Origin: a virus
Taxonomy: Duplodnaviria > Caudoviricetes
Length of the DNA: 64,000 nucleotides
Virus record (IMG/VR): IMGVR_UViG_2772190661_000001
Coordinates: 1 to 64,000 of that record
Direction: 5' to 3' (one strand)
Below are positions 38,686 through 63,762 of the stretch, in pieces; the stretch's first letter is position 1, and each line of letters opens with the position of its first letter. A program made the translations under genes and the position numbers. The notes under the pieces are model-generated. The model saw only the letters and a program-made list of their open reading frames with translations. It ran no database searches and had not been told where the DNA came from.

Positions 38686-38931
38686 TCATCCGGTGCCGAT
38701 CGCGGCGAGAGCGTCGAGGAGGTGCCGGTAGGTGATGGCGCGGGCCCGGTTGGGCTTGTTGAGGCCGCGTTCCCAGCGGGAGATGGTCATCGGGTCGACG
38801 CCGACCTCAGCGGCGACCTCGGCAAGGGTGGCGCCGGATCGCTGGCGGATAGCGCGGCATTCGCTCGGCGGGGGGAGTCGGGTGGCGCGGATCGTTTCCA
38901 CGAGCGGCGGAGATTCGGGGGCGAGGGTCAT
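38686..38931 (-). CDS. XRE/Cro-like HTH protein
   Basis: RAIRQRSGATLAEVAAEVGVDPMTISRWERG. Confidence 0.85.
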   Translation of the reverse strand: MTLAPESPPLVETIRATRLPPPSECRAIRQRSGATLAEVAAEVGVDPMTISRWERGLNKPNRARAITYRHLLDALAAIGTG

Positions 38932-38934
38932 GAA

Positions 38935-39000
38935 ACGATCCTAGCGAAATTCCAAGAAATTTCTAGCAACTTGCTAGCACGTGTGGCAAGATTGCTCGCA
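38935..39000. promoter_or_regulatory. AT-rich divergent promoter between replication and transfer genes
   Basis: CTAGCAACTTGCTAG palindrome; GAAATT repeats. Confidence 0.6.
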
Positions 39001-40622
39001 TGCCACCGACTGCCGTGAGCAACCTGTTCGCCCCCGACTACGGCACCGGCTCCCCGCCGGCGGCCCCGGCCGAGCCGAACGCTGTGCCGTGGTGGCAGCA
39101 GCTCGCGCCCGACGCACTCGGATACGCCACCGGCCACTGGCAGGCCGCCGCCGCAGTCGCCCTCCTCGCGCTCCTCGCCTGGAAGGTCACCGGCCGCTTC
39201 CGCCGGACCCGCACCGCCGGAGGCGCGCCCACCGAGCCCGGCGGACTCACCCCCACCGACCGGGCCATCACCCGCATCACGGCCCTGATCGCCACCGCGG
39301 TCCTCGCGACCGGCATGTGGAAGTTCTTCGCCGACGTCCTGTCCTTCCACTGGACGATCCGGCTCGTCCTCTTCGCATTCGCCGAAGCGCAGATCATCTC
39401 CGCGTTCCGGCGCACCCGACGGCACATCTACCGGCACGGCAGCCTCGGCCACGGCGCCCGCGTCATCTACGGCATCGCCGCCGGCTCCGCCTTCCTCGCC
39501 TCGATCCACGCGACCAGCACCGACGAAGGCGCGTTCCGCTGGTTCGTCGCCGCGGTCGCCGCGTACATGGTCGTCGAGGAGCTCGTCGAAGAGCTGGACA
39601 TCTGGCTCACCAAGCACCCGGAGAAGCGGCCCGCCGGGTCCCGGAAACCCGGCCAGATCCACTGGGCGCTCACCCCCGAACGGATCCTCGTCTGGCTGCG
39701 CCTGGCCGAGCCGACCTCACGCGGCATCGAAGACGTCGCCAAGGCTCGCCGCCTCGCCCGACTCGCCCGGACCGCGTACCGGCTCCACCTGCTCCAGGAG
39801 ACGAAGTCCGCGAAATGGCGGGTCCAGCTCGCCGCCCGCTCGCTGCGCCGGCAGGCCGAGGCCGCGAACGAGCACCTGCAGCTCGGCACCGACCAGGCCG
39901 CGATCCGCGCGGTCCGGGAGCAGCTGGCCCTGCTCTACCAGGTCGCCGACGGCACGACCCGGGCCGCGGTCGCGGACGTGTCCCCGTGGGGCGGCCAGGT
40001 CCGGCTCGCCATCACCGGACATCCGCACCGGACATCCGCACCGGACATGACCGGACACGCGCCGGACGCGGTGACCGGACAGCGCGGTGGACAGCCGTCC
40101 GGACATCAGGTGGACACGCGACCGGACACCGCACCCGACAGCCCGGTGGACACCGGACTCGACACGGTGACCGGACAACGGGTGGACATGGTTCCGGACA
40201 GCGCGGTGGACATCGTGACCGGACAAGCGCCGGACATCAGTCCGGACGCCGCACTGGACACCCGACCGGCCACCCGTCTGGACATTCGACCGGTCACCGC
40301 CGCCGTCGCTGACCGGACACCACGACCGGACACCCAGGCGCGCCGTGACCGGACATCCAACCGGACACCGCGACCGGACACCAAGACCACGTCCGCGCAG
40401 GCCAAGGCCCGGAAACTCCGCGACGAAGACGCCCTCACCCACGAGCAGATCGCCCGGCGGCTGAACGTGTCCACGAAGACCATCTCGCGGTGGCTGAAGA
40501 GCGACGAGCCGGACACCAGCACCGCGCCGGACATGCCGATCCCGATGTCGCCCATCCCCGAGCCGCGCCCGCCGGTCACCGCCGGGACCAACGGGCACTC
40601 TCACAGCACCGAGGAGAACTGA
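39000..40622 (+). CDS. Spd-like (DUF2637-type) membrane protein with C-terminal HTH
   Basis: Several N-terminal TM helices, low-complexity linker, LTHEQIARRLNVSTKTISRWL. Confidence 0.75.
   Translation: MPPTAVSNLFAPDYGTGSPPAAPAEPNAVPWWQQLAPDALGYATGHWQAAAAVALLALLAWKVTGRFRRTRTAGGAPTEPGGLTPTDRAITRITALIATAVLATGMWKFFADVLSFHWTIRLVLFAFAEAQIISAFRRTRRHIYRHGSLGHGARVIYGIAAGSAFLASIHATSTDEGAFRWFVAAVAAYMVVEELVEELDIWLTKHPEKRPAGSRKPGQIHWALTPERILVWLRLAEPTSRGIEDVAKARRLARLARTAYRLHLLQETKSAKWRVQLAARSLRRQAEAANEHLQLGTDQAAIRAVREQLALLYQVADGTTRAAVADVSPWGGQVRLAITGHPHRTSAPDMTGHAPDAVTGQRGGQPSGHQVDTRPDTAPDSPVDTGLDTVTGQRVDMVPDSAVDIVTGQAPDISPDAALDTRPATRLDIRPVTAAVADRTPRPDTQARRDRTSNRTPRPDTKTTSAQAKARKLRDEDALTHEQIARRLNVSTKTISRWLKSDEPDTSTAPDMPIPMSPIPEPRPPVTAGTNGHSHSTEEN
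40014..40533 (+). repeat. clt/TRS-like direct repeat array within CDS
   Basis: About 18 CCGGACA plus about 7 (G/C)TGGACA, all co-oriented and in all three frames. Confidence 0.8.
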
Positions 40623-40624
40623 CC

Positions 40625-41245
40625 GTGCGCGACCCACTCACCTACCTGTACCGCTGCTTCGACCGCGAAGGTCAGCTGCTGTACGTCGGGGTCGCCGACG
40701 ACGTCGAGCGCCGCAAGCGGCAGCACGCCGGCGAGAAGTACTGGTGGCACGACGTCGCCCGCGTTACCAAGATGGCGTTCCCGCGCCGGATCGAGGCGCT
40801 GTGGGCGGAGTGGGCGGTCATCACGACGTGCGCGCCGCTCTACAACGCCACCGCGACTATCCCGGCCGTGCCCGGTGAGACCACCCGGCCCGCCCCGACC
40901 GCGCGCCGCGACACGAACTACCAGCTCACGGCACCTGCGATCCGCGCAGGCATGACGGATGAGCAGGTTGAGCAGTACGCCGAGCAGCGCGCCCAGGCCG
41001 TCCTCGCGCACGGCGAGACGAAGGCGTCTGCGATGCGCGAGTACTGGCTGACCTGCGCATCTCTTGGCGTTGAGGCCCGGGGCACCCGGATGGCGAAGGC
41101 CGCGGGCAGCGCCGAGTCGAAGGGCCGAGACCTGGCGATCCGCTGGCGCCGCGACCTCCAGTCTGGCGCGTCTACGGCGGACATCGCCGCCGCGCTCGAA
41201 CGCGTCACCACCGACTTGAGCAGCACAAACACCGAGGAGAGCTAA
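40625..41245 (+). CDS. GIY-YIG nuclease family protein
   Basis: YLYRCFD.EG.LLYVG....ERR..QH...AE..I....PLYN. Confidence 0.85.
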   Translation: MRDPLTYLYRCFDREGQLLYVGVADDVERRKRQHAGEKYWWHDVARVTKMAFPRRIEALWAEWAVITTCAPLYNATATIPAVPGETTRPAPTARRDTNYQLTAPAIRAGMTDEQVEQYAEQRAQAVLAHGETKASAMREYWLTCASLGVEARGTRMAKAAGSAESKGRDLAIRWRRDLQSGASTADIAAALERVTTDLSSTNTEES

Positions 41246-41247
41246 CC

Positions 41248-42053: not shown

Positions 42054-42983
42054 GTGATCGACTGGTTCAACTCGCACGCCTGGCACATCGCCGCGATCAT
42101 CGCCGGGTTCGGCATCCGCTGGTTCGCCATGCAGTTCCTCGCCACCGCCACCAAGGCCAGCCTGCGCGCCGGCGCCGGACGGGCCGGACAGCCCGGCACC
42201 GGCCAGGCCGGCGGCACCGCCACCGCCACCAAGTCGAAGAAGTGGAACAAGCTGCGGGTCATCAAGACGATGACGCTGGCGCTCGTCGTCGCATCCGGCC
42301 TCGCCCTTGCCTACGGCACCATCCCGGCCGCCCAATGGGTGATCAGCTGGGGGTCCGGGTTCGGCGGGATCGTCGCCGCGATCTTCGGGGTGCTGTCCGT
42401 CGTCGCCGGATGGCGGGCCATCGAGTCCGGCGCGCAGCTCGTCCACGACCTGTCCGACGGCACTCCCGACGACGCCGCGTTCAACGCCGGGTTCTGGATC
42501 CCGACCCTCGTCCCGATCGGCTGGGCCGCGATCGTCGCCCTGTTCACCAGCGCCGAGGGCGTCACCAACCTCGTCTCGGCGATCATCATCTCCGCGATCA
42601 CGATCTTCTACGGGCACCGGATCCTCAAGCAGGCCCACAACGCCGCCGGGCACAAGCCGCTCTGGATGTACTACGCCTTCATCGTGTCGATCTTCATCGG
42701 GCTCGTGCACATCGTTGCGTTCGCGTACATCGACACCGGAATCGCCGCCTACCTCGGCTCCGGTCTCCTGATCATCCTGCGGGTCGTCTTCGCCGTCACC
42801 GCCATCGGCTTCCTCATCGCCGGCGCCGGCGACTGGATCCGCGACTTCATCCCCGAGAAATGGTCCCAGTGGGCCGCCATGTACGCCATCCCGATCCTCT
42901 TCGTCCTCCCCCAGGCCGTCTACGCCGACATTCAGAACCGAGGCCAGGACACGATCACCGTCATCTTCGGAGCGTTCTCATGA
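42054..42983 (+). CDS. polytopic membrane protein of transfer cluster
   Basis: About 8 hydrophobic helices; AAGGAG RBS. Confidence 0.8.
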   Translation: MIDWFNSHAWHIAAIIAGFGIRWFAMQFLATATKASLRAGAGRAGQPGTGQAGGTATATKSKKWNKLRVIKTMTLALVVASGLALAYGTIPAAQWVISWGSGFGGIVAAIFGVLSVVAGWRAIESGAQLVHDLSDGTPDDAAFNAGFWIPTLVPIGWAAIVALFTSAEGVTNLVSAIIISAITIFYGHRILKQAHNAAGHKPLWMYYAFIVSIFIGLVHIVAFAYIDTGIAAYLGSGLLIILRVVFAVTAIGFLIAGAGDWIRDFIPEKWSQWAAMYAIPILFVLPQAVYADIQNRGQDTITVIFGAFS

Positions 42984-43783
42984 CCAAGCCCACCCAGCAG
43001 CCCGGCGGCGACGAGAACGCCAAGTCCGCCGTCGCCTTCACCGCCATCATGACCGCGGTCGCCGGTGGAGCCGGCCTGGTCGTCGCCGGCCTGATCCTCG
43101 GCTTCGACTACCTGATTCACGGCGACCCCGACGAACGCGAGCAGCTGGAGAAGACCCGCGAGCAGCGGCGCGCCGACCGGTACGCCGACGCCCTCTCCTG
43201 GCTCGACGCGGACCGCGCCGACCGGGACCGGCACCGGCGGGCCACCCGGGACTGGTTCAGCGCCGACCCCGCCACCCGCGGCGAGAAGCCCGACAGCGGT
43301 GAGACCGTCGGCCGGGTCGCCGCCCGCCTGTGGAACGGGGCGATCGTCGGCTGGCGCCGGTTCAAGACCGGCTGGGACGACGGCCGCGCCGACGCCCGCG
43401 ACCGCCGCGACGCCGGCGAGCCCGGCTGGTGGCGGCCCGGCACCACCAAGCCCCGCACCAGCGGCCACGACGACGGCAAGGAGCAGGCCGGCGGCGAGCC
43501 GGTCACCGCGACCGGCGAGCAGACCGACTGGGACGGGCTCACCCCCGGCCCAGCGCCGGCCAGCACCGACGACGGCATCCTCGACGCCGAGGTCATCCCC
43601 GACCCGCCGGCCGTCGACCGGGACCTCGTTCCCGTCGGCCAGGACGCCACGCCCGGCCCGGACCCGCGGACCGCCAGCTACGACGCCAGGCTCGCCGACC
43701 TCGAAGCCGAGGTGTCCAGCAGCGCCGGCCAGCCGCGGCCCGGCTACCGCAACGGCCAGGCGCTCCGGGACGCGGACGCGTAA
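42980..43783 (+). CDS. membrane-anchored protein of transfer cluster
   Basis: ATGA-coupled; one TM; RRFKTGWDDG. Confidence 0.75.
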   Translation: MTKPTQQPGGDENAKSAVAFTAIMTAVAGGAGLVVAGLILGFDYLIHGDPDEREQLEKTREQRRADRYADALSWLDADRADRDRHRRATRDWFSADPATRGEKPDSGETVGRVAARLWNGAIVGWRRFKTGWDDGRADARDRRDAGEPGWWRPGTTKPRTSGHDDGKEQAGGEPVTATGEQTDWDGLTPGPAPASTDDGILDAEVIPDPPAVDRDLVPVGQDATPGPDPRTASYDARLADLEAEVSSSAGQPRPGYRNGQALRDADA

Positions 43784-43840: not shown

Positions 43841-44281
43841 GTGAGCAACCTGGCGAACATCGGCGGCGGGGGTATCGCGCCCCGGTCCGGCGGGGCGATG
43901 GCCATGCCGTCCGGGACCGGCGCGGCCGGCGCCGCGAACGTGTCCATGGTCCGCATGATCGTCCTGCTCGGTCAGGCGGTCCGCGCCCTCGACGTCCTCG
44001 AAGACGTCGGCCGGGACCTGCTGGCCGAGGCCACCACGACCGAGGAGATGGCGAACTACCTCACCGCGTCGTTCGGGGAGCGCATCTCCCTGGAAGAGAT
44101 CCGGATCATCGCGCAAATGCTGACCCAGATCGTCGACGGCAGCAAGAAACTCGTCCACAAGGGCGCCGAGTCCGTCCGGGCCGCGACCATGGCGAACTTC
44201 CAGGTCCGCGTCGCCCAGGAGCAGCTGCACTCCCTCGGCGCCGACGGCGCCTGGGTCGACTCCCAGCGACGGGCCGGCTGA
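43841..44281 (+). CDS. helical protein upstream of TraB (TraA-like position)
   Basis: 146 aa, AAGGAG RBS. Confidence 0.75.
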   Translation: MSNLANIGGGGIAPRSGGAMAMPSGTGAAGAANVSMVRMIVLLGQAVRALDVLEDVGRDLLAEATTTEEMANYLTASFGERISLEEIRIIAQMLTQIVDGSKKLVHKGAESVRAATMANFQVRVAQEQLHSLGADGAWVDSQRRAG

Positions 44282-44360: not shown

Positions 44361-47318
44361 ATGACCAACACCATCACCGCCCCGGCCACGACAGCCCGGC
44401 CACCGGCGCCCGCGAAGAACGCCCTCCCGGCCGGGGTCGTCATGACCCGGCACTGGCGCGAGACCGACGGCGGCCCGATCGTCAAGCACGACCACGAACG
44501 CCCCGTCGACGACAGCCGCGACCTGCCCGTCGGCGTGTGGTGGCTGTGCCCGGCCTCCGAGACGTGCAAGACCGGCGAGTGGGTGTTCCCCCGCGACGAC
44601 GACCCCGGCATGCCGAAGAAGCAGTTCTGCGCCGACCACGGCGCCCGGCTGCTTCCCGGCCGGGCCGAGGCGTCCGACGGTGATCCGAAAGCCGCTGCAC
44701 GCGGCTGGCTGGAGGGCTGGCTCGCCGACGCGGCCGCCGCTGGCCGCCAGCGGATCGCGGATGCGACAAGCACCCGCATCGCCCAGATCCGCGCGGCCGG
44801 CCGGGCCGAGGCCGAACGTGCCGGCCGGGACCTGCGCGAGCACGTGCCGTCCCTGACCGTGTCCGCCGGCGCGCTCGTCGCGGACTACTCGCTCCTGACG
44901 AACCTCGACACGCTGCCCGGCATCGCGGTCGGCACGTGCCTGGCCGTCGGCGGAACCGTCCTCGCCTACCTGACCGTGTACGCGGGCGAGCTCGTCTACG
45001 CCCGCCGCATGGGCTACACCCTCCGCGAACTGCCCCGGCACCTGCGCGCCCGCGCCCGGTCCCGCGCCCGCTGGATCGCCTCCGGAGTCCTCGCGACCGG
45101 TGTGTGGCTCGTCATCGCCGAGGCGATCGGCGCGGACCTCGCGAACTTCCGCGGGTTCCTCATGTCGATGCTCGGCGCCCTGCTCATCGCCGTCGTCAAC
45201 TACCGGCCGTGGGCCGACATGGTCGCCCGCCGGCAGGCCGCCGCCCGCGCGGCCGCCGTGCACGCCGAAGCGCAGGCACGCGCTGAGGAGGAGCGGATCG
45301 AGGCCGAGCGTGCCGAGACCGCCCGGCAGGAGCACGAGGCCGCCGAAGCGCAGCGTGCCGCGGAGGAGTCCGCGGCCGCCGAGGCACGGAAGATCGCCGC
45401 CGAGCACGACACCCCCGACGACGCCGGCCGGAAGTTCGCCGAGCGTTGGCAGCACGTCATCGCCGCGTCCCGGGCCGCGAACGGCGCCGCCGGATTCGAC
45501 ATCGCCCGGACCGAGGTCGTCGCCGGCCAGACCCGGAAGCTGACCGCCGCCGACGGTGACGGTGAGGTCGTCATCGGCTGGGAGTACCTGGTCAAAGCCG
45601 CACCCGGCGTCCTCACCCCGCGCAACGGGGACGTGTCGCCGTTCGTTGGTATGAAGCGGTGGCTTGCCGACGTCTTGGAGATCGACGTGGCGATGCTCGA
45701 CCTGCAGTACCAGCCGAACCGGGTCGGTGAGGGCGACAAGCCCGAACCGCTGATCAATCACGGCCTCGTCATGATCTCCGAGACGTTCCCGCTCGCGGAA
45801 GCCGTCACGCACCCGGGCGCGAGCGGCGTGTTCGTCGACCGCAAGGGCGTCCGGTGGGCGTTCGCCGGCCGGGGCGTCCGCGGCGAAGGCGTCTACAAGC
45901 GGCACTTCACCCCCGGGCAGGCCGGGGGCGGGAACACCGTCGGTGTGACCGGCACCGGCAAGTCCGTCCTCGTACAGGGCACCGTGTACGGCGACCTGCT
46001 CCTCGGGATCCTGCCGATCCTCCACGACGCGGGCAAGAACGCCATGGACTACGTCGACTTCTACGGCATCGTCCCGGTCGGGCACACCATCGAACACCGG
46101 GAGATCATCCGCGAGTCGCTGTGGGCGGAGATGAAACGCCGCCAGGCGTGGATCAACATGCGGACCACAACCGGTCTCGGCGGCATGGAGGTCGTCGCCG
46201 ACCCGACCTGGGACTGCGACGCTGGCGGCCCGCCGATCCGGGCGATCTGGGACGAGTTCCACATGCACATGAAGGACCCGAAGTTCGTCACCATGCTCAC
46301 CGAGATGGTCCGTCTCCAGCGCGCCACCGCGATCATGGCCGAGACGGCGACGCAGGGCGGCGGCCTGGCCGACATGGGCGACAACAACCTCCGTGAGCAG
46401 CTCAACGAGATCCGCTCCCAGCTCATGCGGGTCACCGACCACACCGCCCGCCTGACCGGCTACACCGGCGGGATCAAGCCGTCCGACCTGCCGACCCTGC
46501 CCGGCATGGTCGTCATGCAGGAGATGCGCGGCACGCCGGTGGCGTACCGGGCCGCGTTCATCCCCCGCGATCCGCAGAACCCGGACTCGCTCGTCTACCG
46601 GATGCGCCGTCCGAACGGTACCCCCGAGGGCGAGCAGATCCTGTTCGCCCCGACCCTGCCGCCGGAGACGATCGCCGTGTTCGAGGAGCACGGGCTGATG
46701 GACCTGTGGGAGCTCGGCAAGACGAAGTCCGGCCGGGAACGCCTGCAGTCCGAGTCCGACCCGGTCGAGTCGACCGCGTTCCCCGCCGACCTCGCCGCCA
46801 TGTTCGGTGCCGCCGGTCAGGGCGTGCAGCCGTCGCAGAAGCCGCACATGCGCGCCGAAGACCTGATCCTGGCCATGCTCAAGCACGAGTCCGACCAAGG
46901 CCGGCCCGGCTTGACCATCGCCGAGATCCAGGAGTCGGCGTGGTGGGTCCACATCGCCGGCCCGTGGTCCAAGAGCGACAGCGGCAGCCCGTCGCACACT
47001 ACGATCGGGCACGCCTGCAAGCGCATGTCCACCGTCACCGACCAGCAGGCCGCAGCCGGTGCGGCACCGCTGGTCGGCAACGACGGCGGCAAACCGGCCG
47101 TCCGCTGGTCTCTGCTCGCCGCCGGCACGGAGCGCGGCGAGCAGATGCTCAACCTGATCCGTTCCACCGGTGCCCTCGGCAAGGAGGGCCGGGCCCAGGC
47201 CGCGGCGTCCGGCATGGACGTCGGCCAGATGGAGCGGGAGGCGATGCTCCGCGCCGAGCAAGAGGCGCTCATCGCCGAGCTTGTCCGCGAGGCCGCCAAG
47301 GCTGCGGGTGGCGCATGA
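44361..47318 (+). CDS. traB: TraB-like FtsK/SpoIIIE conjugal DNA translocase
   Basis: TM bundle, coiled coil, Walker A GVTGTGKS, Walker B IRAIWDEFH, RLQRA..I...ATQ, C-terminal wHTH-like region. Confidence 0.85.
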   Translation: MTNTITAPATTARPPAPAKNALPAGVVMTRHWRETDGGPIVKHDHERPVDDSRDLPVGVWWLCPASETCKTGEWVFPRDDDPGMPKKQFCADHGARLLPGRAEASDGDPKAAARGWLEGWLADAAAAGRQRIADATSTRIAQIRAAGRAEAERAGRDLREHVPSLTVSAGALVADYSLLTNLDTLPGIAVGTCLAVGGTVLAYLTVYAGELVYARRMGYTLRELPRHLRARARSRARWIASGVLATGVWLVIAEAIGADLANFRGFLMSMLGALLIAVVNYRPWADMVARRQAAARAAAVHAEAQARAEEERIEAERAETARQEHEAAEAQRAAEESAAAEARKIAAEHDTPDDAGRKFAERWQHVIAASRAANGAAGFDIARTEVVAGQTRKLTAADGDGEVVIGWEYLVKAAPGVLTPRNGDVSPFVGMKRWLADVLEIDVAMLDLQYQPNRVGEGDKPEPLINHGLVMISETFPLAEAVTHPGASGVFVDRKGVRWAFAGRGVRGEGVYKRHFTPGQAGGGNTVGVTGTGKSVLVQGTVYGDLLLGILPILHDAGKNAMDYVDFYGIVPVGHTIEHREIIRESLWAEMKRRQAWINMRTTTGLGGMEVVADPTWDCDAGGPPIRAIWDEFHMHMKDPKFVTMLTEMVRLQRATAIMAETATQGGGLADMGDNNLREQLNEIRSQLMRVTDHTARLTGYTGGIKPSDLPTLPGMVVMQEMRGTPVAYRAAFIPRDPQNPDSLVYRMRRPNGTPEGEQILFAPTLPPETIAVFEEHGLMDLWELGKTKSGRERLQSESDPVESTAFPADLAAMFGAAGQGVQPSQKPHMRAEDLILAMLKHESDQGRPGLTIAEIQESAWWVHIAGPWSKSDSGSPSHTTIGHACKRMSTVTDQQAAAGAAPLVGNDGGKPAVRWSLLAAGTERGEQMLNLIRSTGALGKEGRAQAAASGMDVGQMEREAMLRAEQEALIAELVREAAKAAGGA

Positions 47319-47598: not shown

Positions 47599-48264
47599 AT
47601 GACCACAGCACCGGACCGGCTCTCCTCGGTCGTCCGTCGCGGCATCGTCTACGGGATCACCACCCTGACGCACGAGTGCGCGCTGGCCATGCTCCGCGGC
47701 GAGCCCATCACCGCCGGGACCGAGTTCGGGTATGCGGGCAAGACCCGGCAGCGACTGGCCGCCCGGGAGCGCCAGCACCGCGACACCCAGCCGTGGTCGG
47801 ATCTGATCGTCGGTGAGGCGTTCGTCGTCGAGCAGGGCATGTGGGACGAGCCGGAACTCGACGCCCGCGAACTGGCGGTCATCGCCGGATGGCGGCCGCG
47901 GTACAACATCAGCGGCAACTGGGACAACCCGGGCCGGGTAAAGCCGTGGGATGCGGTCGCGCAGCGCCACGCGCGTGATGATGCGGCGGGCCGGCCTCGG
48001 TGGGTTCCGCCAGTCGAGCGTGCGCCCGTCGTGTTCGCGACGCCGCCGTGGTGGCGGCGCGCGCTGGCCGCTTGGCCTCCATGGTCGGCGAAGCTGGTGG
48101 TATGGGCTGTGGCGTGGCTGCTGCTGTGGGCTCTGGTCCAGGCTGTGCTGACCGAGATGGGAGTGCCGGACAGCGGCGCTCTGGCGGTCCCCGTGTCCGG
48201 CGGCCTGCTCGGGTGGGGCCTACGCCGGGGTGGTGCCCGGTTCGCATGGAAGCGCCGCCGCTAA
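47599..48264 (+). CDS. GIY-YIG-like protein with C-terminal TM helices
   Basis: GIVYG...GYAGKTRQ.LA.RE.QH...E..I...RPRYN plus 2 TM. Confidence 0.75.
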   Translation: MTTAPDRLSSVVRRGIVYGITTLTHECALAMLRGEPITAGTEFGYAGKTRQRLAARERQHRDTQPWSDLIVGEAFVVEQGMWDEPELDARELAVIAGWRPRYNISGNWDNPGRVKPWDAVAQRHARDDAAGRPRWVPPVERAPVVFATPPWWRRALAAWPPWSAKLVVWAVAWLLLWALVQAVLTEMGVPDSGALAVPVSGGLLGWGLRRGGARFAWKRRR

Positions 48265-49446: not shown

Positions 49447-49779
49447 CTACTCCAGCAGCGCCGGCCGCGGGCGGGGATCCCGGCCGGTCACGCCGACGTT
49501 CGCCTGCACGAACCCGGCCACACCCGTCGGGCTCCACAACCCGAAGTGCATCGCGACCGCGACCATGAACGTGCCAAGCCACGTCAGGCCGACCGTGCCC
49601 CAGCCGAACACCTGCGCGGTGTTCAAGGCGACCAGGTACTCGGTCAGGAACCCGGACACCGCGGACAGCAGCGCGAGCAGCACCGCCTTGACGCCCGGAC
49701 TGGTCGACTTGGACGTGACGACGCCGACGAGGATCGGCAGAATGATGCCGACCACCAGGGAAAGGATCTGCACCTGCAC
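49447..49779 (-). CDS. putative holin
   Basis: Three TM helices; LPILVG.VT...S.GVKAVLL...HFGLW.PTGV. Confidence 0.8.
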   Translation of the reverse strand: MQVQILSLVVGIILPILVGVVTSKSTSPGVKAVLLALLSAVSGFLTEYLVALNTAQVFGWGTVGLTWLGTFMVAVAMHFGLWSPTGVAGFVQANVGVTGRDPRPRPALLE

Positions 49780-50191: not shown

Positions 50192-50580
50192 GCCCGCCCG
50201 TTCTGCTGCTGCCCGCGGGCGACGAGAAGCCGCAAATGCTCGAGCGTCGCGTCCGGGGCCAGGATCGCCGTCCGTAACTGATGCAGTTCCGTCGCGAGCG
50301 CCCGCGCCTCCGCCGTCACCCGCTCCATCTGCTCCTGCGCCGCCGACATCTGCTCCCGGGCCTTCGACGCCTGCACCTGCGCCGCCTCGGCCTGCGCCTG
50401 CGCGGACTCGGCCGCCTTCTCGAACTTCCCGATCCACTCCATCGCCGTGCCCGTGATCACCTGCGCGGCGTCCGCGCGAGTCTTACGCCGGCCGAACGCC
50501 GCATTCAACAGCGCCCCGAGCCCGCCCAGCCCGCCGACCACCGCGACCGCGAGCATCAGCCACTCCGCCGTCCCGTTCAC
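50188..50580 (-). CDS. TM plus coiled-coil lysis-cassette protein
   Basis: N-terminal TM, RK..ADAA, long coiled coil. Confidence 0.8.
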   Translation of the reverse strand: MNGTAEWLMLAVAVVGGLGGLGALLNAAFGRRKTRADAAQVITGTAMEWIGKFEKAAESAQAQAEAAQVQASKAREQMSAAQEQMERVTAEARALATELHQLRTAILAPDATLEHLRLLVARGQQQNGRA

Positions 50581-52340: not shown

Positions 52341-52859
52341 TCAGTTGATCAGCGAGCGGTAGAGGGACACCTCGAAAACGCACGTGATCGTGGACGTCTC
52401 GCTGCCGGTCCCGAGCATGTTCAGCGCGCCGCCGGACGTCTGCCAGCCGAACAGCTCCACGAAGTCCGTCGTGCCGTTGCACTCGATCAGCCGCTGCACC
52501 GACACGGACATCGGCGTCGCCGTCAGGTTCGCGATCCGCTCCGACGGCGCCATCAACGTCCCGTTCCGGGCGATGATCGCCCGCCGTTCCCCCGTCGCAT
52601 TCGACGCCCACCACACCGTCCCCTGGCACAGATACGTGCCAGGCACCGACGGCGTCACCCTGGACGGGTTGACGGTCGTCGAATGAAAGTCGTGGGTGTC
52701 GTACACCTCCACCGACGTGCCGCCGAAAACGACCGGGAACCCTGACCCGGACGTCGGATGGGACTGGTCAGCGCCCAGGATCAACCTGGTCACCGGCCGG
52801 TCCGCCATCAGATTCAGGCGGGCCGGGGTCAACTTCATGCCGGCGAGAAACGTCGCCAT
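52341..52859 (-). CDS. minor tail protein
   Basis: F.AG.KLT.ARLN N-terminus plus beta-sandwich (D.HDFH...NPSR.T...PG.Y...NG.TDFVEL). Confidence 0.8.
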   Translation of the reverse strand: MATFLAGMKLTPARLNLMADRPVTRLILGADQSHPTSGSGFPVVFGGTSVEVYDTHDFHSTTVNPSRVTPSVPGTYLCQGTVWWASNATGERRAIIARNGTLMAPSERIANLTATPMSVSVQRLIECNGTTDFVELFGWQTSGGALNMLGTGSETSTITCVFEVSLYRSLIN

Positions 52860-55789: not shown

Positions 55790-57559
55790 TCACGTGGCCG
55801 TGAAGATCTGGTAGCGGGAGACGCGCCAGCGCTGGTTCGCCCCGTGGTAGACGGCGGTGATCTCCGCTGTGGACCCGGACGCGATCGCGGACACCGTCAC
55901 CGTCGGCGTACCGGACGCGAGCACGAACCCGCCCGTACCGGTCGCGAGCGTCGGCGTGCGCGCGCCGCCCGACGCGGTCAGGCGCCACGTGCACTCCTGA
56001 CCATCACTGGCGTTCGTCGGCACACCGAGCGTGCGGTTACCGGCCATCGCCGCCACCGCGAAGTACGAGCCGAGGCTAGCGTCGGTGGCGATCGCCGCCG
56101 CGTCCGTGAGCGCGATCGTCGGCGCCTGCATTTTCACGCCGGGGCCGACCTTGAGCGCGGCCGCGACCGTACCCGGCCCGGCGTACGTGCAGTCGCGGAC
56201 GACCGCGAAGTCGGCGACGTCGGCATTGACGGTGCTGCCGGTGTCGGCGTAGATGCTGATCGGCCCGGCCACGTTCGGCTTCGCGCTGTACGTGTTGTCG
56301 TCGTCGATGAGCAGCACCGTCGCCGACGGCTCCACATACGCGAGTCCGCAGCGGACCCGAGAGCCGTAGCCGTCCAGGTCGGCGAGCACGGACCCGTTCT
56401 TCAGCGTGACGTGGACGAAGTCGATGTCAATGTCGTAGGCGGCCGAGGCGATCGCGGCCGCGGTCCCGAACTGCTCCACATTGCAGTTGACCAGCCGGAT
56501 GTGGGCGGTCGCGCCGATGAACCGCCATGCGATCATGCCCGTTGTGGCCGGGTTCGCAATGCTATGGCATGTAAGAAACAAATTCTGATTCTGCTGGCCC
56601 GCATTGCTCTCCAGCGAATACGCGGCCCCGCCCGCCGCACCCGTATACAGGTCGACGAAGCACCGGCTGACGGTCATGTCGCCCGGGTTGAAGTCCGCGT
56701 GCGACGAGGAGAACCGCATCCCGTTCGTGGTGCCGTTGACCTCGATGTCGGAGATCGTGGCCCGGAACATGTTGTCGAGGTCCAACGCCCAGCCGCTGTC
56801 GGTGCCCGCGAACGAGCCGAGCACCTGGATCCGATGGATCGTCGACATCCACGCCGACCGGTGGCCGGCCGCGGGCGTCGCGGTCGCGACCGCCTGGATG
56901 CCGTCGGACGTACCGCCGATCGTCAAGCCCAGATCCCAGACGTGCGCCCTCACGCACTTCGTCAGCCGGACGCCGCAGTTGACGCCGCCAGCCACGTTCA
57001 GGGTCGTGTTCTTCGGGCCCGCGCCGCGCAGGTACAGATCCTGCTCGACGTCCACGTCATCGAAACCCTCGACGAGGATCGGCGCCGCCAGGTTGTAGAC
57101 GCCCGCGGTCAGCAACACCGTCCCGCCCGCCCCGGCCCGGAGCGCGGCCAGCGCAGCATTGATCTCGACGTCGTCCGCGGTCCCGTCACAGTTGTAGGCG
57201 CCGACGATCCCGGACCCGTTCGCCGACACCACCAAGGTGTTCGGCAGCGACGCCCCGCCCGCGCCGCCCGACGTGCCCCGAATCCGGTAGCGGACGCCCG
57301 AGTTCGGATCCTGGACCCAGATGTCCGCCGTGAAGCCGTCAGGGCCATAGAACAGGACCCGCCCGTTCACATCCGCGGTCACCACCGCAGAAGCCGCACC
57401 GACCGCTGTCTGCAGGTCCGTCAGCGCCGACCCGCCCGTCAACGCCGACCAGGCCGTCAGAATCATGCCCGGTGCGATCGCCGGCACCTGATACCCGCCG
57501 ACCGACTGCGCGGTCGCCACGTAGTCGGCGGGCGCGCCACCGTAGAGCGTCCGGGCCAT
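55790..57559 (-). CDS. tail spike/fibre with parallel beta-helix (depolymerase-like)
   Basis: CDGTADDVEINAAL...GGTVLL.AG.YN...LRGAG. Confidence 0.8.
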   Translation of the reverse strand: MARTLYGGAPADYVATAQSVGGYQVPAIAPGMILTAWSALTGGSALTDLQTAVGAASAVVTADVNGRVLFYGPDGFTADIWVQDPNSGVRYRIRGTSGGAGGASLPNTLVVSANGSGIVGAYNCDGTADDVEINAALAALRAGAGGTVLLTAGVYNLAAPILVEGFDDVDVEQDLYLRGAGPKNTTLNVAGGVNCGVRLTKCVRAHVWDLGLTIGGTSDGIQAVATATPAAGHRSAWMSTIHRIQVLGSFAGTDSGWALDLDNMFRATISDIEVNGTTNGMRFSSSHADFNPGDMTVSRCFVDLYTGAAGGAAYSLESNAGQQNQNLFLTCHSIANPATTGMIAWRFIGATAHIRLVNCNVEQFGTAAAIASAAYDIDIDFVHVTLKNGSVLADLDGYGSRVRCGLAYVEPSATVLLIDDDNTYSAKPNVAGPISIYADTGSTVNADVADFAVVRDCTYAGPGTVAAALKVGPGVKMQAPTIALTDAAAIATDASLGSYFAVAAMAGNRTLGVPTNASDGQECTWRLTASGGARTPTLATGTGGFVLASGTPTVTVSAIASGSTAEITAVYHGANQRWRVSRYQIFTAT

Positions 57560-57562
57560 CGG

Positions 57563-60500
57563 CTACCTCCGTCGTCCGTCGCCGAGCGCGACCTGCGCGT
57601 CTCCGCCATAGCGGATCGCGACCATGCCCCGGATCGCGTCTAGGATCTGGTCGCCCGTCGCATTCCGGGCCCACGCCAGCTCCGGGCTCGGCGGCGCCTG
57701 CAGGGTCATGCCGGCCGAGAACGCGGCCTCGGCCTGGGCGTAGATGCCGTGCGGGTCGGCGACAATCGACGACGCGATGTCGTCCGAGATGCCGCCCAGT
57801 TCCGAGCCGAGCAGCCCACGCCGCGAGGCGATGCCCTCGATCAGGCCGTCCATGATGGCCGCGCCCTCGGGGATGAGGAGCTTGCGGTCTTTCTCGATCG
57901 GACCCTTGTTGTTCTTGATGAAGGTGGCGACGCCGCCGAGGTAGCCGCCCAGCGTGGAGAGCATCGAGCCGATACCCGAAATCAGGCCCGACACGATCGC
58001 ACGCCCGGCGCTGTAGAGCAGGTTCCCGGTTGCTCCGAGCCCGTTCGCGACGCGGGTGCGCAGCCCGGACGCGGTCGACTGCAGCGATCCGGCCAGGCCG
58101 GAGATCCCGGATTGGAGCCCGGAGACGAAGTCCCGGCCCTTCTGCACCAGCGTGCTGCCGGCGTTCCCGACCGCGTCCCGGACCTTCCCCGGGATCTCGC
58201 GGGCCTTCGACGACAGCGACCCGAACAGGGACCCGATCCCGTTGATCAGGCCCTGGATGAGGTCCTTGCCGATCTGCATGAACACGGTCGACGGCGAGGC
58301 GATCCCGAGCCCGGACTTGACCTTGCCGACCAGGCTGTTCGGGCCCGACCACAGCAGGCTCGCCGCCGCCGACGCCAGCAGCGACCCGAGGGCTTTCGCG
58401 CCCTCCACGACACCCTCGACGATCGCCCCGCCGACCGACTTGGTCCTCTCCTTGACCGTCGTGCCGATCCCGGACCAGTCGATCTCGCCGATCCACTTGC
58501 CGATGTTGTAGAGCAACTCGTACTGGCCGAGGAAGGTGGCGTCGTCGCCGGGATCAAGGGAGCTGAAGAAGTTCGAGATCGACTCGGCCTTGCCGACCAG
58601 GTCGCCGACCGACTTCGCAAACTCTTTGAAGTCCTCGATGTAGCCGCGGATCCGCTCCTGCGTCTCCGGATCCTTTAGAGACGTCGCCAAGTCGTCCATG
58701 AACGCCTTGAACTGCTTGAAGGGCGACTCCTCGTCCTTCTGCTCCGACCCGGTCAGGATCTCAAAGAACGAGCCGACGATCGAACCGGCATCCTTAGCGA
58801 TGTCCTTCAAATCGTTGAAGTAGCCGGTCGCGTCCTGGAAGAACTGCTCCAGGCGGCCGTCCTCCGCCATCGAGTTGATTTTGTCGGAGAACTTCTGCAG
58901 CCCGTTCGCGATCGACGACCCGACCGCGTCCAGGAACGGCTTCGCCTCCGCCGCCAGCGACGCGAACGCCTCCACCAGCGGGCCGGTGACAACCTTGCCG
59001 ATCTTCTCGAAGTTCGACCGGATCGTCTCCGCGCCAGTGATCAGATCGTCGATGACCTGTGGCTTCTGCAACGTCTGGCTGAGGTTCTTGAACAGGCCGT
59101 TGAACGTGTCCGCGTACGAGCCGAGAGACTCCTCCAGCCGCGGCAGCCACGCATTCGCCAGATTCGTGATCTCCACGCCGAGGCCGGCGAACAACCGGTT
59201 CTGCACACCCAGGCGCAGCTCCTCGAACGCCGGCCCCAACGCCTTGATCGCATCGACGAACTTCTGCGCCTCAGGCGCCAGCTTGATCGTGTCGTCCAGG
59301 CCGCCGCCGCCACCCCCGCCACCGGCGGACGCGGCACGCTCCCTCGCCTGCGCCAGCGCATCCTGCGCCGAGATCAGCGAGTCATACGACGCCTTGACGC
59401 CATCGTTCGCGCTGGCCAGCCTGTCCTGGGCGTCGATGATCCCGTTCGCGGCATCCTCGACGGCCTTACGCGCGTCGGACTGCTCCTTCAGCGCGGCAAC
59501 AACCTCTTCGGAGCCCTCGATGCCCTTGCGGTTCGCCTCCCCGGACTCCTCGCCCAGATCCTCGACCGCATCCTTGGCGTTCTCGACCGCGAGCTTCGCC
59601 CGCTCGTAGCGGGACTCCGCCTCCTCGATCAGCTCCGGGTTGAACGTCGTCTTGGCCGCCGCCAGGTCCCGCTGCGCGTTCCGTAGCTCCCGCTCCGCGT
59701 CGCTCTGGTCCAGAACCGCGCCGCGTAGCGAGCGGCCCAAATCCTCGAACCGCTCCTGCGCCTGCTTCCGCGCCCGATCGACGATCCCCTGCAGGCGCGC
59801 CTCGGCGGCCAGCGCGTCCGTGTACGAACGGTTCGCCTCGGCCAGGCCGCGCTGCGCCTGCTGCAAACCACGCGACGCCGCCGCGATCCCGCGACGGGCC
59901 GCCTCCACCCCGCGCTCAGCCGCGGCGACACGGCGAGCACGGTCCTCGGCGGACTCGCCACCACCGCCACCCGAACCGCCGCCGCCGACCTTCTTTTTGA
60001 ACGCGTCGCCGATGCCCGAGAAGCCGAGCTTCAGCGTTGCGAAACCCGCGCCGATACCGGCAATCAGGCCCGGCAGCGACGCCAGCACGCCCGCGAGCGT
60101 GTAGACCAGCGGCACCGCGGCGCTAGCCGCGAAACCGATCCCGGCGACGATCCCGGCCGCGATCGCCGCCACACCAGCAGCCGACCCGACAGCGCCCAGC
60201 GACCTGGCCACCCCGCCGACGCTGCCAACCACATCCGACGCCACCCCAGCCAGCTGCGAGAGAGCAGCCGAGATCGCGCTCGTCTTTGGCGGGTCGACCT
60301 CGACCTTCGCCTTCACCCGCGCCGACGCTGCCGCGACCAGCGCCCGCAGCTTCAACTCGAACTCCCGGCGGCCCTCAGGGTCGACCGGGATCTTCGCCTT
60401 CAACTGCTGCTGAATCGCGCCCAGCTCGGCCCCGAGCTCCTGCCGGAAACCGGCCGTGTCCGCGTTGACCGGCACCTTCGCGTTCACGGTCTTCGCCAGC

Positions 60501-60901
60501 CCGGCCACCTGCACGCCCAGCTCACGCCGAAACGCGTCGAAGACCGGGTCGACGACGACCGGGACCGTGACCGGTTCCGGCTTCGGAACCTTCGGCAGCT
60601 TCTCCGGCTTCGGCTCCGAAGACCTCGGCGCCCGAGGCGCCCGCGGGGCAGGCTGGCCGCCGGACGGTTCGGCCGGCACCTTCATCCGGGCCTTGCCGAG
60701 CTGCTCCTTGAGCCTGCTCGTGTCGAGCACCGGCGTGACGGTGACCGTCAGCTTCTCGCCGTTGATCGCCTTCTGCAGGACCGACTTGAAATCGACGCCC
60801 TTGAACGCACCCTCGATCTCGCGCTTCAGGGACTTCGCGAGCTTCCGGGTGTCCGCGACGACCTCGACGCTGACTTGCCCCACGGAAATCGGAGCGGTCA
60901 C
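57563..60901 (-). CDS. tape measure protein
   Basis: 1112 aa Ala/Gly-rich helical; GIASPS.VF..IG..LIQGL; follows tail chaperones. Confidence 0.9.
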   Translation of the reverse strand: MTAPISVGQVSVEVVADTRKLAKSLKREIEGAFKGVDFKSVLQKAINGEKLTVTVTPVLDTSRLKEQLGKARMKVPAEPSGGQPAPRAPRAPRSSEPKPEKLPKVPKPEPVTVPVVVDPVFDAFRRELGVQVAGLAKTVNAKVPVNADTAGFRQELGAELGAIQQQLKAKIPVDPEGRREFELKLRALVAAASARVKAKVEVDPPKTSAISAALSQLAGVASDVVGSVGGVARSLGAVGSAAGVAAIAAGIVAGIGFAASAAVPLVYTLAGVLASLPGLIAGIGAGFATLKLGFSGIGDAFKKKVGGGGSGGGGGESAEDRARRVAAAERGVEAARRGIAAASRGLQQAQRGLAEANRSYTDALAAEARLQGIVDRARKQAQERFEDLGRSLRGAVLDQSDAERELRNAQRDLAAAKTTFNPELIEEAESRYERAKLAVENAKDAVEDLGEESGEANRKGIEGSEEVVAALKEQSDARKAVEDAANGIIDAQDRLASANDGVKASYDSLISAQDALAQARERAASAGGGGGGGGLDDTIKLAPEAQKFVDAIKALGPAFEELRLGVQNRLFAGLGVEITNLANAWLPRLEESLGSYADTFNGLFKNLSQTLQKPQVIDDLITGAETIRSNFEKIGKVVTGPLVEAFASLAAEAKPFLDAVGSSIANGLQKFSDKINSMAEDGRLEQFFQDATGYFNDLKDIAKDAGSIVGSFFEILTGSEQKDEESPFKQFKAFMDDLATSLKDPETQERIRGYIEDFKEFAKSVGDLVGKAESISNFFSSLDPGDDATFLGQYELLYNIGKWIGEIDWSGIGTTVKERTKSVGGAIVEGVVEGAKALGSLLASAAASLLWSGPNSLVGKVKSGLGIASPSTVFMQIGKDLIQGLINGIGSLFGSLSSKAREIPGKVRDAVGNAGSTLVQKGRDFVSGLQSGISGLAGSLQSTASGLRTRVANGLGATGNLLYSAGRAIVSGLISGIGSMLSTLGGYLGGVATFIKNNKGPIEKDRKLLIPEGAAIMDGLIEGIASRRGLLGSELGGISDDIASSIVADPHGIYAQAEAAFSAGMTLQAPPSPELAWARNATGDQILDAIRGMVAIRYGGDAQVALGDGRRR

Positions 60902-62119: not shown

Positions 62120-62153
62120 CGCTGGCGGCCAACCCGCACGGTGGCCGCCAGCG
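62120..62153 (-). terminator. hairpin after major tail gene
   Basis: CGCTGGCGGCCA / TGGCCGCCAGCG. Confidence 0.6.
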
Positions 62154-62164
62154 CCGGTCTGGGG

Positions 62165-62719
62165 TTAGAGCGCGAGGTCGTCGTCGAGGTAGTAGCGGTA
62201 GACCCAGAAGCCATTGACGTCCATGTATGCGGACAGCTCCCACTCATACACGGTGATACCGCCGGCCGACCACAGGACGTCACCCCTGTTCGTAACCTCA
62301 CCGCTCGGCACCACGAGCCGCAGCGCGCGGTTACCGTCGATGCCGTGCAGGACCCACGGCCGCACGTCGGTGCCCGGCGGGCGCTCGGCGACCGACACGC
62401 CCTCGGACGTCTGCGTGATGACCGACCCGGAGTACTGAATGCCCAGGGTGGTCAGGTTCGTCTCAGCAGCAGCAAAAGTGAAGACTTTCGATGCCTGGCC
62501 GGGGATGCGGCGGGCCAGCGCGTTCTTCTGCCACACAAATACATCGGTTCGGTCCTGAGAAGTCGCCTCGGAGATGCCGTCCTCCGAGATCGCGCCCACC
62601 GGGTTCGCGCCCGACGGTAGCGGCGACGACGCGTTGGTCGGGAGCGTGAAGCTGCCGCCCTCGACGGAGGTGGCCACAAGGCCATCCGTGTAGGCCCTGA
62701 TCAGGCTGACGTCGACCAT
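62165..62719 (-). CDS. major tail tube protein
   Basis: G.ISEDG........D...WQ...F...ETN...VP.GEVT.RGD; position before chaperones. Confidence 0.85.
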   Translation of the reverse strand: MVDVSLIRAYTDGLVATSVEGGSFTLPTNASSPLPSGANPVGAISEDGISEATSQDRTDVFVWQKNALARRIPGQASKVFTFAAAETNLTTLGIQYSGSVITQTSEGVSVAERPPGTDVRPWVLHGIDGNRALRLVVPSGEVTNRGDVLWSAGGITVYEWELSAYMDVNGFWVYRYYLDDDLAL

Positions 62720-62792
62720 GGGTCACTCCTTGAGCATGGTGATGGACCCGACGGCCGCGCCGGGCAAGAAAGGACGAAGAGGTGCTTCGCGG

Positions 62793-63122
62793 TCAGGCGG
62801 TCCGGAAGGCCTGGAGCTTCACGTCCGCGTGGTCGACGCCGACCTCCAGCGAAGCGCCGTAGCGGGTCGTGTCGAACGGTCCGACGTAGCGGGTCCCGGA
62901 TGCCGGCACGGACACGCTTCGGGCCGTGATGGGCTGGCCGTCGACCGAACCCTTGAGGTTGATCGTCATGGTCCGGGGTGTCACGCCGTTGTTGCGTGCG
63001 ACGATGAACGTCGATCCACTGTTGGCGACGGAATGCGCATTCACGGGATCGCCGTTGACCTCGGTGGCAGGCGCTACGCCCGCCTTGGTGATCACGGTGA
63101 CGGGTACGGCAACGCGCGCCAT
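62793..63122 (-). CDS. small virion structural/decoration-like protein
   Basis: beta-rich, GD..N.H..N.G...VDG...R.V.VPA....GPF; GGAGG RBS. Confidence 0.7.
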   Translation of the reverse strand: MARVAVPVTVITKAGVAPATEVNGDPVNAHSVANSGSTFIVARNNGVTPRTMTINLKGSVDGQPITARSVSVPASGTRYVGPFDTTRYGASLEVGVDHADVKLQAFRTA

Positions 63123-63174
63123 GGCTACCTCCGGGCATGGTGAAGTGGCCGAGCCCCGAGGCGGGTCGGCTGGA

Positions 63175-63762
63175 TCAGATGGGTGGGATCCGTTGGAAGC
63201 GTTCGCGGTAGACGGCGGATTGCGCCTGCTCAAGATCCTTAATCGGATCATCGATAAGAATCAATTCTGCGGGCCGTCCGGTCACACTGCCAGCCACGCC
63301 GGCACAGAACACCCCGCCCTTACGTCCCTCGATCTGCCAGCGCCCCGCAGCACGCGAATCCGCGCGCAGCCGCACACCGAGGTCCACCGTGCCCTCGTCG
63401 CCGTTGAAGGTCTCGAAGTCCCGCTTGATGTCCGCGCCCCAACGCCTGGCGATCTCGTCGGAGTAACTGATGATGATCGTCCGGAGGTCTTGATCAACGT
63501 CGGCCATCAGCCACGTCGGGAACCGGTACGACACCGTGCTCGACTTCGCCTCCTGTGGCGGCATCGAGATGATGAGCCGGTCCTCGCGGCCCTCGGCCAC
63601 GTCGACCAGCGACGCGTTGATCAGTTCCAGGGCAGGCGTGCGCACGATCGTCGGGTCGAGCGCCTGAGCCATGTCCAGCGGCGACGCCCAGCGCCGGGTC
63701 CGCGGCTTCATCAGCCGCGCCGCCTCGCGCATCGCGGCGCGCACGTCGAGGAGCCCGGACAC
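63175..63762 (-). pseudogene. terL: truncated terminase large subunit (ATPase N-terminal half)
   Basis: RLIISMPPQEAKS, SYS..IA..WG, GV.GS.TG.PA.LILIDDP.KD; stops about 20 aa after Walker B, no nuclease domain. Confidence 0.85.

Follow-up and report, generated by a model that had tools for sequence, protein, structure and literature searches.

The stretch of DNA considered here, positions 1 to 64,000 of the IMG/VR virus record IMGVR_UViG_2772190661_000001 (this whole stretch of 64,000 nucleotides is called the window below), belongs to an integrated element that is probably a temperate siphophage-type prophage, located at the 3′ end of a tRNA-Arg(ACG) gene and made defective by one deletion. 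On its plus strand the element bears a gene cassette built around a membrane-anchored ATPase with a predicted FtsK-type fold, for which a role in TraB-style DNA transfer is plausible. An original prediction, made from the letters of the window, had proposed a TraB conjugation module joined to a headless siphovirus tail and lysis module. The window corresponds to positions 316041-380040 of contig C4, a 453-kb contig in a 10.97-Mb draft genome of 133 contigs and ~70% G+C, which is 100% complete by marker genes. All coordinates follow the window numbering, extended past both ends, and the position on contig C4 equals the coordinate + 316040. The host is read from sequence as a Catenuloplanes-like member of Micromonosporaceae, because the only genome of the same genus with relatives of the element bears a protein whose source is named Catenuloplanes indicus.

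The integrated element and the loss of its head genes

The element measures 91.9 kb (contig C4 312341-404258, window coordinates -3699 to 88218) and is flanked by a perfect 45-bp direct repeat at -3699..-3655 and 88174..88218. On the right, the copy forms the 3′ terminus of an intact tRNA-Arg(ACG) gene within a tRNA cluster, whereas on the left it is a partial tRNA end beside a tRNA-Pro gene, with four further tRNA genes beyond. A tyrosine integrase is encoded just inside the left end (phrog_1, 1e-55), and the combination of an integrase with an att duplication at a tRNA gene agrees with a prophage. Because the att repeats and the integrase bound it, the whole of what follows belongs to one integrated element; an arrangement of two tandem elements was excluded, as a search for a third copy of the 45-bp repeat found none.

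The evidence for the deletion comes from the junction at the upstream end of the tail genes:

63175..63813, minus strand: stump of the terminase large subunit, a 212-amino acid (aa) open reading frame (ORF) covering approximately the first 205 residues, with the ATPase Walker A and B motifs (phrog_4758, 6e-30)
63183..63198, no strand: deletion junction; the right side is terminase coding sequence, the left side is intergenic DNA of the kind that follows the tail terminator gene in the relative

The relative in question is a Catenuloplanes indicus contig (G077:C2, 62,067 bp), the closest intact relative found, which is collinear, in reversed orientation, with window 18.6-63.8 kb. In a profile search the stump covers positions 267-414 of the 760 of phrog_38, and in the terminase of Brevibacterium phage LuckyBarnes (499 aa) its match spans residues 10-181. 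Its similarity to the terminases of relatives ends at about residue 205 (63198-63215), and the window from 63182 down to 63052 aligns at ~88% with G077:C2 16738-16867, the intergenic DNA after the tail terminator gene; past the junction, the DNA continues into a tail gene of 109 aa with 83% identity to its counterpart in the relative. The stop codon of the stump is supplied by the intergenic DNA, giving a clean fusion with a new in-frame stop. At the site of the junction G077:C2 holds 15.7 kb encoding the rest of a terminase of 516 aa in full, portal, protease, major capsid protein, connectors, tail completion protein and tail terminator, as recognized by profile scores (portal 1e-48, protease fusion 9e-69, major head protein 4e-69, tail terminator 3e-11, with matches for a head-tail connector and the tail completion protein as well). 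Thus, since the terminase similarity stops at about residue 205 and the flanking DNA aligns with the post-terminator intergenic region of the relative, sequence comparison points to a single deletion, ~15.7 kb as measured on the intact relative, from about terminase codon 206 to the tail terminator stop.

The lost genes were not recovered elsewhere. In tblastn searches of all 133 contigs with all head-region ORFs of G077:C2, the matches were the stump, the 109-aa gene and the major tail gene only. Genome-wide searches with PF05065, PF04860, PF05133, PF20441, PF17289 and PF03237 gave no match, a terminase nuclease domain being absent from the genome with PF20441 or PF17289, and phrog_38 found only the stump; phrog_1650 was also without a match genome-wide, a weak result given that this family is silent in control genomes too. 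Accordingly, neither a full-length large terminase (ATPase plus nuclease) nor a portal, capsid protease/scaffold or major capsid protein was found, and portal, capsid protein and terminase nuclease, originally named as the genes to look for in the rest of the contig, are missing from the whole genome in these searches. The claim of a stretch with no head genes holds for portal, capsid and complete terminase in both element and genome, but the terminase stump lies within the very stretch so described. Head genes situated merely past the end of the window were excluded, as 73 kb of further reading shows early genes (NlpC/P60, DnaB, replication initiator, RecET), and four cryptic candidates at 64-73 kb (301, 225, 371 and 264 aa) have no head family match. 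Upstream of the stump there follow NlpC/P60, proteins of no assigned function, DnaB, the replication initiator, GIY-YIG, DUF5131, RecT and RecE. The NlpC/P60 peptidase gene (L001:4954-5673, extended coordinates 64954-65673) stands upstream of the terminase amid early genes, an odd site for a phage cell-wall hydrolase.

Relatives of the element were collected with the major tail protein, five among family genomes and nine among species-level genomes with three shared, giving 11 distinct genomes at one genome per species; a scan of IMG/VR with the same protein returned nothing. A search of sequencing runs listed a single DNA data set, probably that of the source sample, and none of RNA. Nine relatives have C. 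indicus-type head genes, or a full terminase 18.5 kb upstream of the major tail gene, and one Micromonospora relative (G228/L035) has a different head module (terminase phrog_9, portal phrog_104, capsid phrog_10); at locus L036 no C. indicus-type head genes were seen in a scan limited to that type. Given these head genes upstream of the major tail gene, the headless state is not conserved among the relatives examined. Moreover, no second near-identical stump was present among 5.8 billion protein clusters besides that of this genome. The original suggestion of a recently decayed phage-plasmid therefore survives in part: the clean single deletion, the intact relatives with heads and the lack of a second stump agree with decay, whereas the present copy is integrated, by its att repeats, and a plasmid state is without support here. 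No ParA/ParB partition genes were seen among the element proteins scanned, which comprise part of its genes only. In the terminase of a Plantactinospora relative (G280; L020:2907-5750), the alignment falls into two pieces ~1.5 kb apart, suggesting that an intein or a homing endonuclease is inserted there.

The tail and lysis genes that remain form a minus-strand block (49447-63122), which converges with the plus-strand cluster (39000-49292), so that both the siphovirus-type block and its convergence at ~49.4 kb stand as predicted, with holin, tape measure and major tail protein recognized by PHROG and Pfam:

49447..49779, minus strand: holin (phrog_8269, 4e-21), two hydrophobic segments
50577..51035, minus strand: 152-aa membrane protein of the lysis cassette (phrog_5552, 8e-14), 4 transmembrane segments, 80% identical to the G077:C2 gene
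51032..52072, minus strand: candidate endolysin, 346 aa, N-terminal VldE-like zinc-peptidase domain and C-terminal helical domain
52341..52859, minus strand: distal tail/fibre-tip protein, 172 aa, matching the C-terminus of the virion structural protein phrog_13989 (1e-8), 61% identical to the G077:C2 gene
52897..55776, minus strand: tail tip protein by position, 959 aa (phrog_5313, 3e-122), 65% identical over its full length to G077:C2 24135-27002
55790..57559, minus strand: distal tail protein by position, 589 aa, 63-66% identical to G077:C2 22190-24118, PHROG match weak
57563..60901, minus strand: tape measure, 1112 aa (phrog_4197, 2e-79, and many tape-measure families), with phage tblastn matches, 64% identical to the G077:C2 gene
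60924..61804, minus strand: two overlapping tail assembly chaperone ORFs, G/T-like (phrog_3656, 2e-23; phrog_8595, 1e-7)
62165..62719, minus strand: major tail protein, 184 aa (phrog_117, 4e-20; PF25681, 2e-9), with 52-69% identical relatives in 11 Micromonosporaceae genomes
62796..63122, minus strand: small tail protein, 109 aa (phrog_38030, 3e-30; phrog_16194 'tail protein', 1e-6), 83% identical to G077:C2 16797-17126

The 109-aa gene, directly upstream of the major tail gene, is the first gene retained past the deletion. The tail module had been taken to be whole; it is not, as the homologues of the tail terminator (phrog_123) and of tail completion (phrog_5) lie within the deleted stretch, and tblastn with the ORFs of the relative against the 133 contigs found neither elsewhere in the genome. 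Two other assignments had to be revised. The supposed beta-helix spike, the 959-aa protein, matches only a phage family without known function and a phosphodiesterase-like stretch. The frameshifting chaperone is represented by the two overlapping chaperone-like ORFs, but their sole canonical slippery heptamer lies too far downstream.

The endolysin had been named without qualification. Pfam, PHROG and NCBIfam give no match for the 346-aa protein, and Foldseek with its model returned nothing significant, whereas H42, D72, H145, H148 and H150 are invariant across 37 homologues, some of which carry PG_binding_1, and the model superimposes on the zinc-binding C-terminal domain of VldE, a pneumococcal peptidase (VIA-align Z 9.0, root-mean-square deviation 2.6, 104/107 residues). 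It is the VldE-like fold, the conserved His and Asp residues and the peptidoglycan-binding domain of some homologues that make an endolysin plausible. Its closest metagenomic relatives are 70% identical (P0063, P0064). The N-terminal peptidase-like domain is also encoded on many Micromonosporaceae chromosomes, at times with PG_binding_1, and contig C5 of the host encodes a 415-aa paralogue of it (P0073).

With respect to its consequences, the deletion would leave the element unable to package DNA or to build heads, and normal tail termination would probably be lost as well; the remaining tail and lysis frames would be open either as the loss is recent or as they have not yet been hit. The headless state itself would then be a case of ordinary prophage decay.

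The plus-strand cassette and its repeat array

On the opposite strand, a cluster of genes begins next to a divergent replication gene and ends close to the holin:

36648..38630, minus strand: fusion of a DnaB N-terminal domain with a DUF3987 NTPase, replication helicase-like (PF13148, 2e-60; PF00772, 2e-19), divergent from the plus-strand cluster
39000..40622, plus strand: 540-aa protein with a C-terminal helix-turn-helix (HTH; weak matches, residues 467-508), first gene of the cluster, its 3′ third containing the repeat array
40017..40533, plus strand: 25 one-strand GGACA repeats, consensus CCGGACA, with a spacing of 10-13 or 24 bp, in all three reading frames
40625..41245, plus strand: GIY-YIG protein (PF01541, 5e-5), its C-terminal half 60% identical to G077:C2 38933-39226
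42054..42983, plus strand: 309-aa integral membrane protein with ~7 hydrophobic segments and no family match, an Spd-like candidate by architecture alone
42980..43783, plus strand: 267-aa cassette member with one N-terminal hydrophobic segment and no family match, a cassette neighbour in the Actinoplanes and Pseudosporangium comparisons
43841..44281, plus strand: 146-aa cassette member, with a 150-aa gene directly upstream of the ATPase in Actinoplanes and Pseudosporangium
44361..47318, plus strand: 985-aa TraB-like protein (P0001) with membrane segments, coiled coil, FtsK-type motor, P-loop GVTGTGKS and helical C-terminal domain
47599..48264, plus strand: 221-aa protein with one hydrophobic segment, adjoining the ATPase, 54% identical to G077:C2 33519-33875, which stands next to the analogous ATPase there

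The name TraB (FtsK) originally given to the 985-aa protein is supported by fold and architecture, whereas sequence searches of Pfam, NCBIfam, PDB sequences, 72,556 plasmids and 50,697 phage records returned no match. By hydropathy, three hydrophobic segments precede the motor (approximately residues 184-279), as membrane association of a TraB protein calls for. An AlphaFold2 model of residues 400-900, built with 32 sequences, reached a predicted local distance difference test score of 87, and Foldseek against the PDB placed EccC (3e-13), the FtsK motor (5e-12) and TcpA (1e-11) at the top. The FtsK/SpoIIIE-type motor is thus recognized by fold and not by sequence family (no PF01580 at E <= 0.01); a profile search against the PDB lists YukB, FtsK and TcpA, all sub-threshold. 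The C-terminal ~70 residues are helical in the model, with no winged-helix fold assigned. About 60 homologues are found, all without Pfam domains, the named ones coming from Actinoplanes, Pseudosporangium and Micromonospora. One homologue (P0009, 1410 aa) contains LAGLIDADG_3 (PF14528), which suggests an intein in this ATPase family.

This gene belongs to a four-gene cassette that recurs in Actinoplanes rectilineatus and Pseudosporangium ferrugineum with no tail genes nearby, and in both the 309-aa membrane protein has a homologue of similar size in the same cassette; that of P. ferrugineum forms a small island beside two GntR/UTRA regulators. Actinomycete TraB genes are typically controlled by a GntR-family repressor of the Kor type; in the element itself, only GntR-like HTH matches occur, at -807..-99 (38-41% identity to the regulators of the relative), at the integrase end and ~40 kb from the ATPase gene. 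A 232-aa gene (32959-33657) was considered as a GntR repressor and rejected, as it has no similarity to the GntR genes of the relative.

The cassette slot is, by comparison with intact prophages, a trait of the lineage that is subject to module swapping, and not a junction peculiar to this element, because two intact relatives hold differing proteins of the same architecture in the same slot. Its occupant in G077:C2 is a protein of 682 aa that has membrane segments and a P-loop and resembles a winged helix at its C-terminus; homologues of the 221-aa and GIY-YIG genes flank it, and two GntR/UTRA genes lie close by; this ATPase and its neighbouring cassette genes are not similar in sequence to those of the present element. 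Aligned with hhalign, the 985-aa family and the 682-aa protein gave a probability of 21% (E 0.001) with the P-loops aligned, which is suggestive only. Scored on language-model features, the 682-aa protein reaches 0.96-0.99 against actinobacterial clusters of FtsK_SpoIIIE plus winged HTH, a result to be taken as a lead only. The second relative is a chromosomal prophage of another genus (G016), collinear with window 62-85 kb over terminase, DnaB, initiator, DUF5131, RecT and RecE, whose slot holds a third, dissimilar protein with membrane segments, a P-loop and a C-terminal winged helix; the ORF at the position of the 540-aa gene there is 40% identical to the C-terminus of the 540-aa protein. 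The plus-strand cluster would therefore be a cassette slot native to the phage lineage and not a foreign module joined to a tail. The supposed new join of transfer and tail-lysis genes is accordingly contradicted by the same layout in intact relatives; a look for relatives with the same junction found the shared cassette and tail layout, but the deletion stump in none.

As for the array, of the 88 copies of GGACA in the 64 kb, 23 fall in one 500-bp bin, and every other bin has <=3. It lies ~4 kb upstream of the ATPase gene, within the gene for the 540-aa HTH protein. The Pseudosporangium relative has a comparable array in its first cassette gene (TGACGCAG, 16 copies, ~12-bp period), and the arrays of C. 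indicus and A. rectilineatus are weaker and could stem from peptide repeats. TraB is known to assemble on repeats of 8 bp at the clt locus, and the DNA that it moves is double-stranded (PMC4170104); by analogy, we regard the CCGGACA array as a clt candidate. A reasonable competing view takes the array for an iteron-type origin that lies inside an initiator gene and adjoins the gene of the DnaB_N-DUF3987 helicase.

Given its fold and setting, the most likely function of the cassette would be TraB-style transfer of the double-stranded DNA of the element between hyphae, as in the Streptomyces plasmid-phage pZL12. We consider such a transfer function plausible, with the chances standing about even. 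By analogy, a recently defective prophage may be transferable, and a headless element could still move after excision.

Competing explanations

The cluster could instead be non-conjugative, with the FtsK-fold ATPase serving partition, DNA pumping in replication, exclusion or defence, and the array being an iteron-type origin in an initiator gene; we consider this possible but somewhat unlikely. The array lies within the HTH-protein gene, next to the divergent DnaB_N-DUF3987 helicase gene, as such an origin would; the lambda origin lies inside gene O. The lack of sequence-family and plasmid-collection matches for the ATPase fits this explanation too, as does the presence of HerA-type defence ATPases among the lower-ranked fold matches. 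However, FtsK, EccC and TcpA, a conjugative coupling protein, head the fold matches; a membrane anchor, motor and C-terminal helical domain make up the TraB layout; and the small Pseudosporangium island by two GntR/UTRA regulators resembles actinomycete conjugative elements. Furthermore, the language-model lead on the same-slot protein of the intact relative points to FtsK_SpoIIIE, and a 12-bp period of one-strand repeats of the 8-bp class is nearer to clt than to iterons, which measure 17-22 bp.

With respect to the tail genes, domestication as a flexible-tail bacteriocin (F-type tailocin), in which tail and lysis genes are kept for headless killing particles while the element spreads by conjugation, is improbable. 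The element shares with F-pyocins and monocins siphovirus-type tail genes, a lysis cassette and the absence of head genes; its ~13.7 kb of tail and lysis genes have open, full-length frames, and a holin, a membrane protein and a peptidase-fold lysin candidate are at hand for release. This explanation is weakened, however, because the tail terminator and tail completion genes went in the same deletion, leaving a tail set that is not self-sufficient, because the prophage backbone is kept (terminase stump, integrase, att sites, two or three replication modules and RecET), and because there is no second example, the headless state occurring in one genome only, with heads in the relatives and no further stump in the databases. 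Established tailocin loci (R- and F-type pyocins, monocins), by comparison, are stripped of integrase, att sites and replication/recombination genes. The bacteriocin function foreseen for the tails thus finds no support. Two further possibilities are both exceedingly improbable. For a tail donor or satellite, lending tails to or borrowing heads from another phage in the cell, only the missing heads combined with intact tape measure and tip genes speak, whereas the six Pfam head and terminase families and phrog_1650 are empty genome-wide, phrog_38 gives nothing beyond the stump, and the connector and terminator genes for joining tails to heads are gone; the proposed lending of tails to another element therefore meets no partner head genes in the genome with the queries used. 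An assembly artefact, in which a head module present in the strain was dropped or collapsed by the assembler, might be expected of a draft in 133 contigs, but the junction lies deep within a 453-kb contig, the head-region proteins of the relative match no contig, and the fusion is clean, with its new in-frame stop.

We thus favor a prophage recently disabled by one deletion and bearing a TraB-like cassette, against which several observations nevertheless weigh. The term TraB-like rests on fold, architecture and context, the sequence families of TraB and FtsK and the 72,556 plasmids having yielded nothing. The position of the array inside the HTH-protein gene by a helicase gene would also suit an iteron-bearing origin of the lambda type. 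None of the 10 remaining tail and lysis genes is shortened relative to G077:C2, an outcome that selection for a tail-like product would give too; at the ~64% protein identity of the nearest relative, synonymous sites in the tail genes are saturated. The Walker A motif of the stump reads PPQEAKS where both compared terminases have PPQEGKS in the alignment, and this glycine-to-alanine change hints at some elapsed time since the deletion, the age of which it does not fix. Finally, with heads restored the element would measure ~107 kb, large for such a phage, and it may therefore be a recombinant of two elements.

Known systems, lineage and minor observations

By analogy, the closest known kind is the Streptomyces plasmid-phage pZL12, whose transfer is reported to need the major tra gene and two neighbouring genes (PMC3583192, PMC4487206). 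Like the present element, pZL12 and pSLE1 are actinomycete elements that join phage particle genes to a TraB-type transfer function (PMC3583192, PMC4487206), whereas they are circular plasmids with ParA/ParB (PMC4487206) and the present element is tRNA-integrated, with a tyrosine integrase, and headless. No sequence similarity to either was found, the ATPase being unmatched in the plasmid and phage collections.

With the TraB/clt conjugation systems of pSVH1 and pIJ101 and with actinomycete integrative and conjugative elements (AICEs), the element shares a membrane-anchored ATPase of FtsK-type fold, a C-terminal helical domain, short one-strand repeats and small membrane proteins, and with AICEs also tRNA integration by a tyrosine integrase. 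It differs from the TraB/clt systems in that its ATPase lacks PF01580 and its array has 25 copies, 4 kb upstream and inside another gene. AICEs are small; the present element is 92 kb and mostly phage genes.

The context appears worth keeping. In three related Micromonosporaceae prophages, the slot by the lysis genes is occupied by P-loop proteins that differ from one prophage to the next but are all membrane-anchored and winged-helix-like at the C-terminus; of these, only the protein of this element was examined for its fold, which is that of an FtsK-type motor. The 985-aa family of ~60 proteins is recognized by no Pfam or NCBIfam model and is accompanied here by a striking one-strand repeat array. 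If the cassettes are indeed TraB/clt systems, a second route of spread, independent of particles, would be routine among temperate phages of mycelial actinomycetes, and a phage that loses its heads could persist as a conjugative element. The broadest form of this idea, which we think unlikely as it stands, is that a Micromonosporaceae temperate siphophage lineage natively bears a swappable TraB-plus-clt cassette and spreads both as virions and by hyphal conjugation, the present element being a snapshot of one turning purely conjugative, tRNA-integrated after head loss, with tail-like particles possibly still made.

The element is judged from sequence to be a mosaic, because its right part is collinear with the G016 prophage and its middle with the C. 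indicus contig, and it may be recombinant. Over the shared part, tape measure, distal tail, tip, lysin candidate, membrane protein and holin are 43-80% identical to those of G077:C2, and the small pre-tail gene 83%; in contrast, G077:C2 is without counterparts of window 64-88 kb and -3.7 to 18.6 kb. It also differs by an insertion sequence (IS) element in its lysis region, an IS-type transposase (G077:C2 30040-30954, L025:11040-11954; phrog_157, 6e-100) of which the present element has no equivalent. Three replication-type modules occur in the element, namely a primase/helicase-like gene (14995-16344), DnaB_N-DUF3987 (36648-38630) and DnaB plus initiator (L001:13629-16060), an inventory that would agree with two elements having recombined.

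Both the beginning of G077:C2, with the terminase region, and its final 3 kb also match the large contig G077:C1 with 100% identity, at C1:9169362 and at C1:15702-18768, respectively; the C. indicus prophage thus appears to reach across the ends of C1, and it may either occur in an integrated as well as a free form or have been assembled twice. At the chromosomal borders of the present element, the insertion divides an ancestral ten-tRNA cluster into His, Val, Val and Pro on the left and Arg, Ser, Gln, Gly, Pro and Trp on the right (L004:5888-6345, L002:8173-9232). Outside both ends lie inverted repeats of 40-43 bp (-11397..-11355, 92456..92580) and a 279-bp stretch of 74% identity (-10923..-10648, 90213..90488), which are probably chromosomal paralogues.

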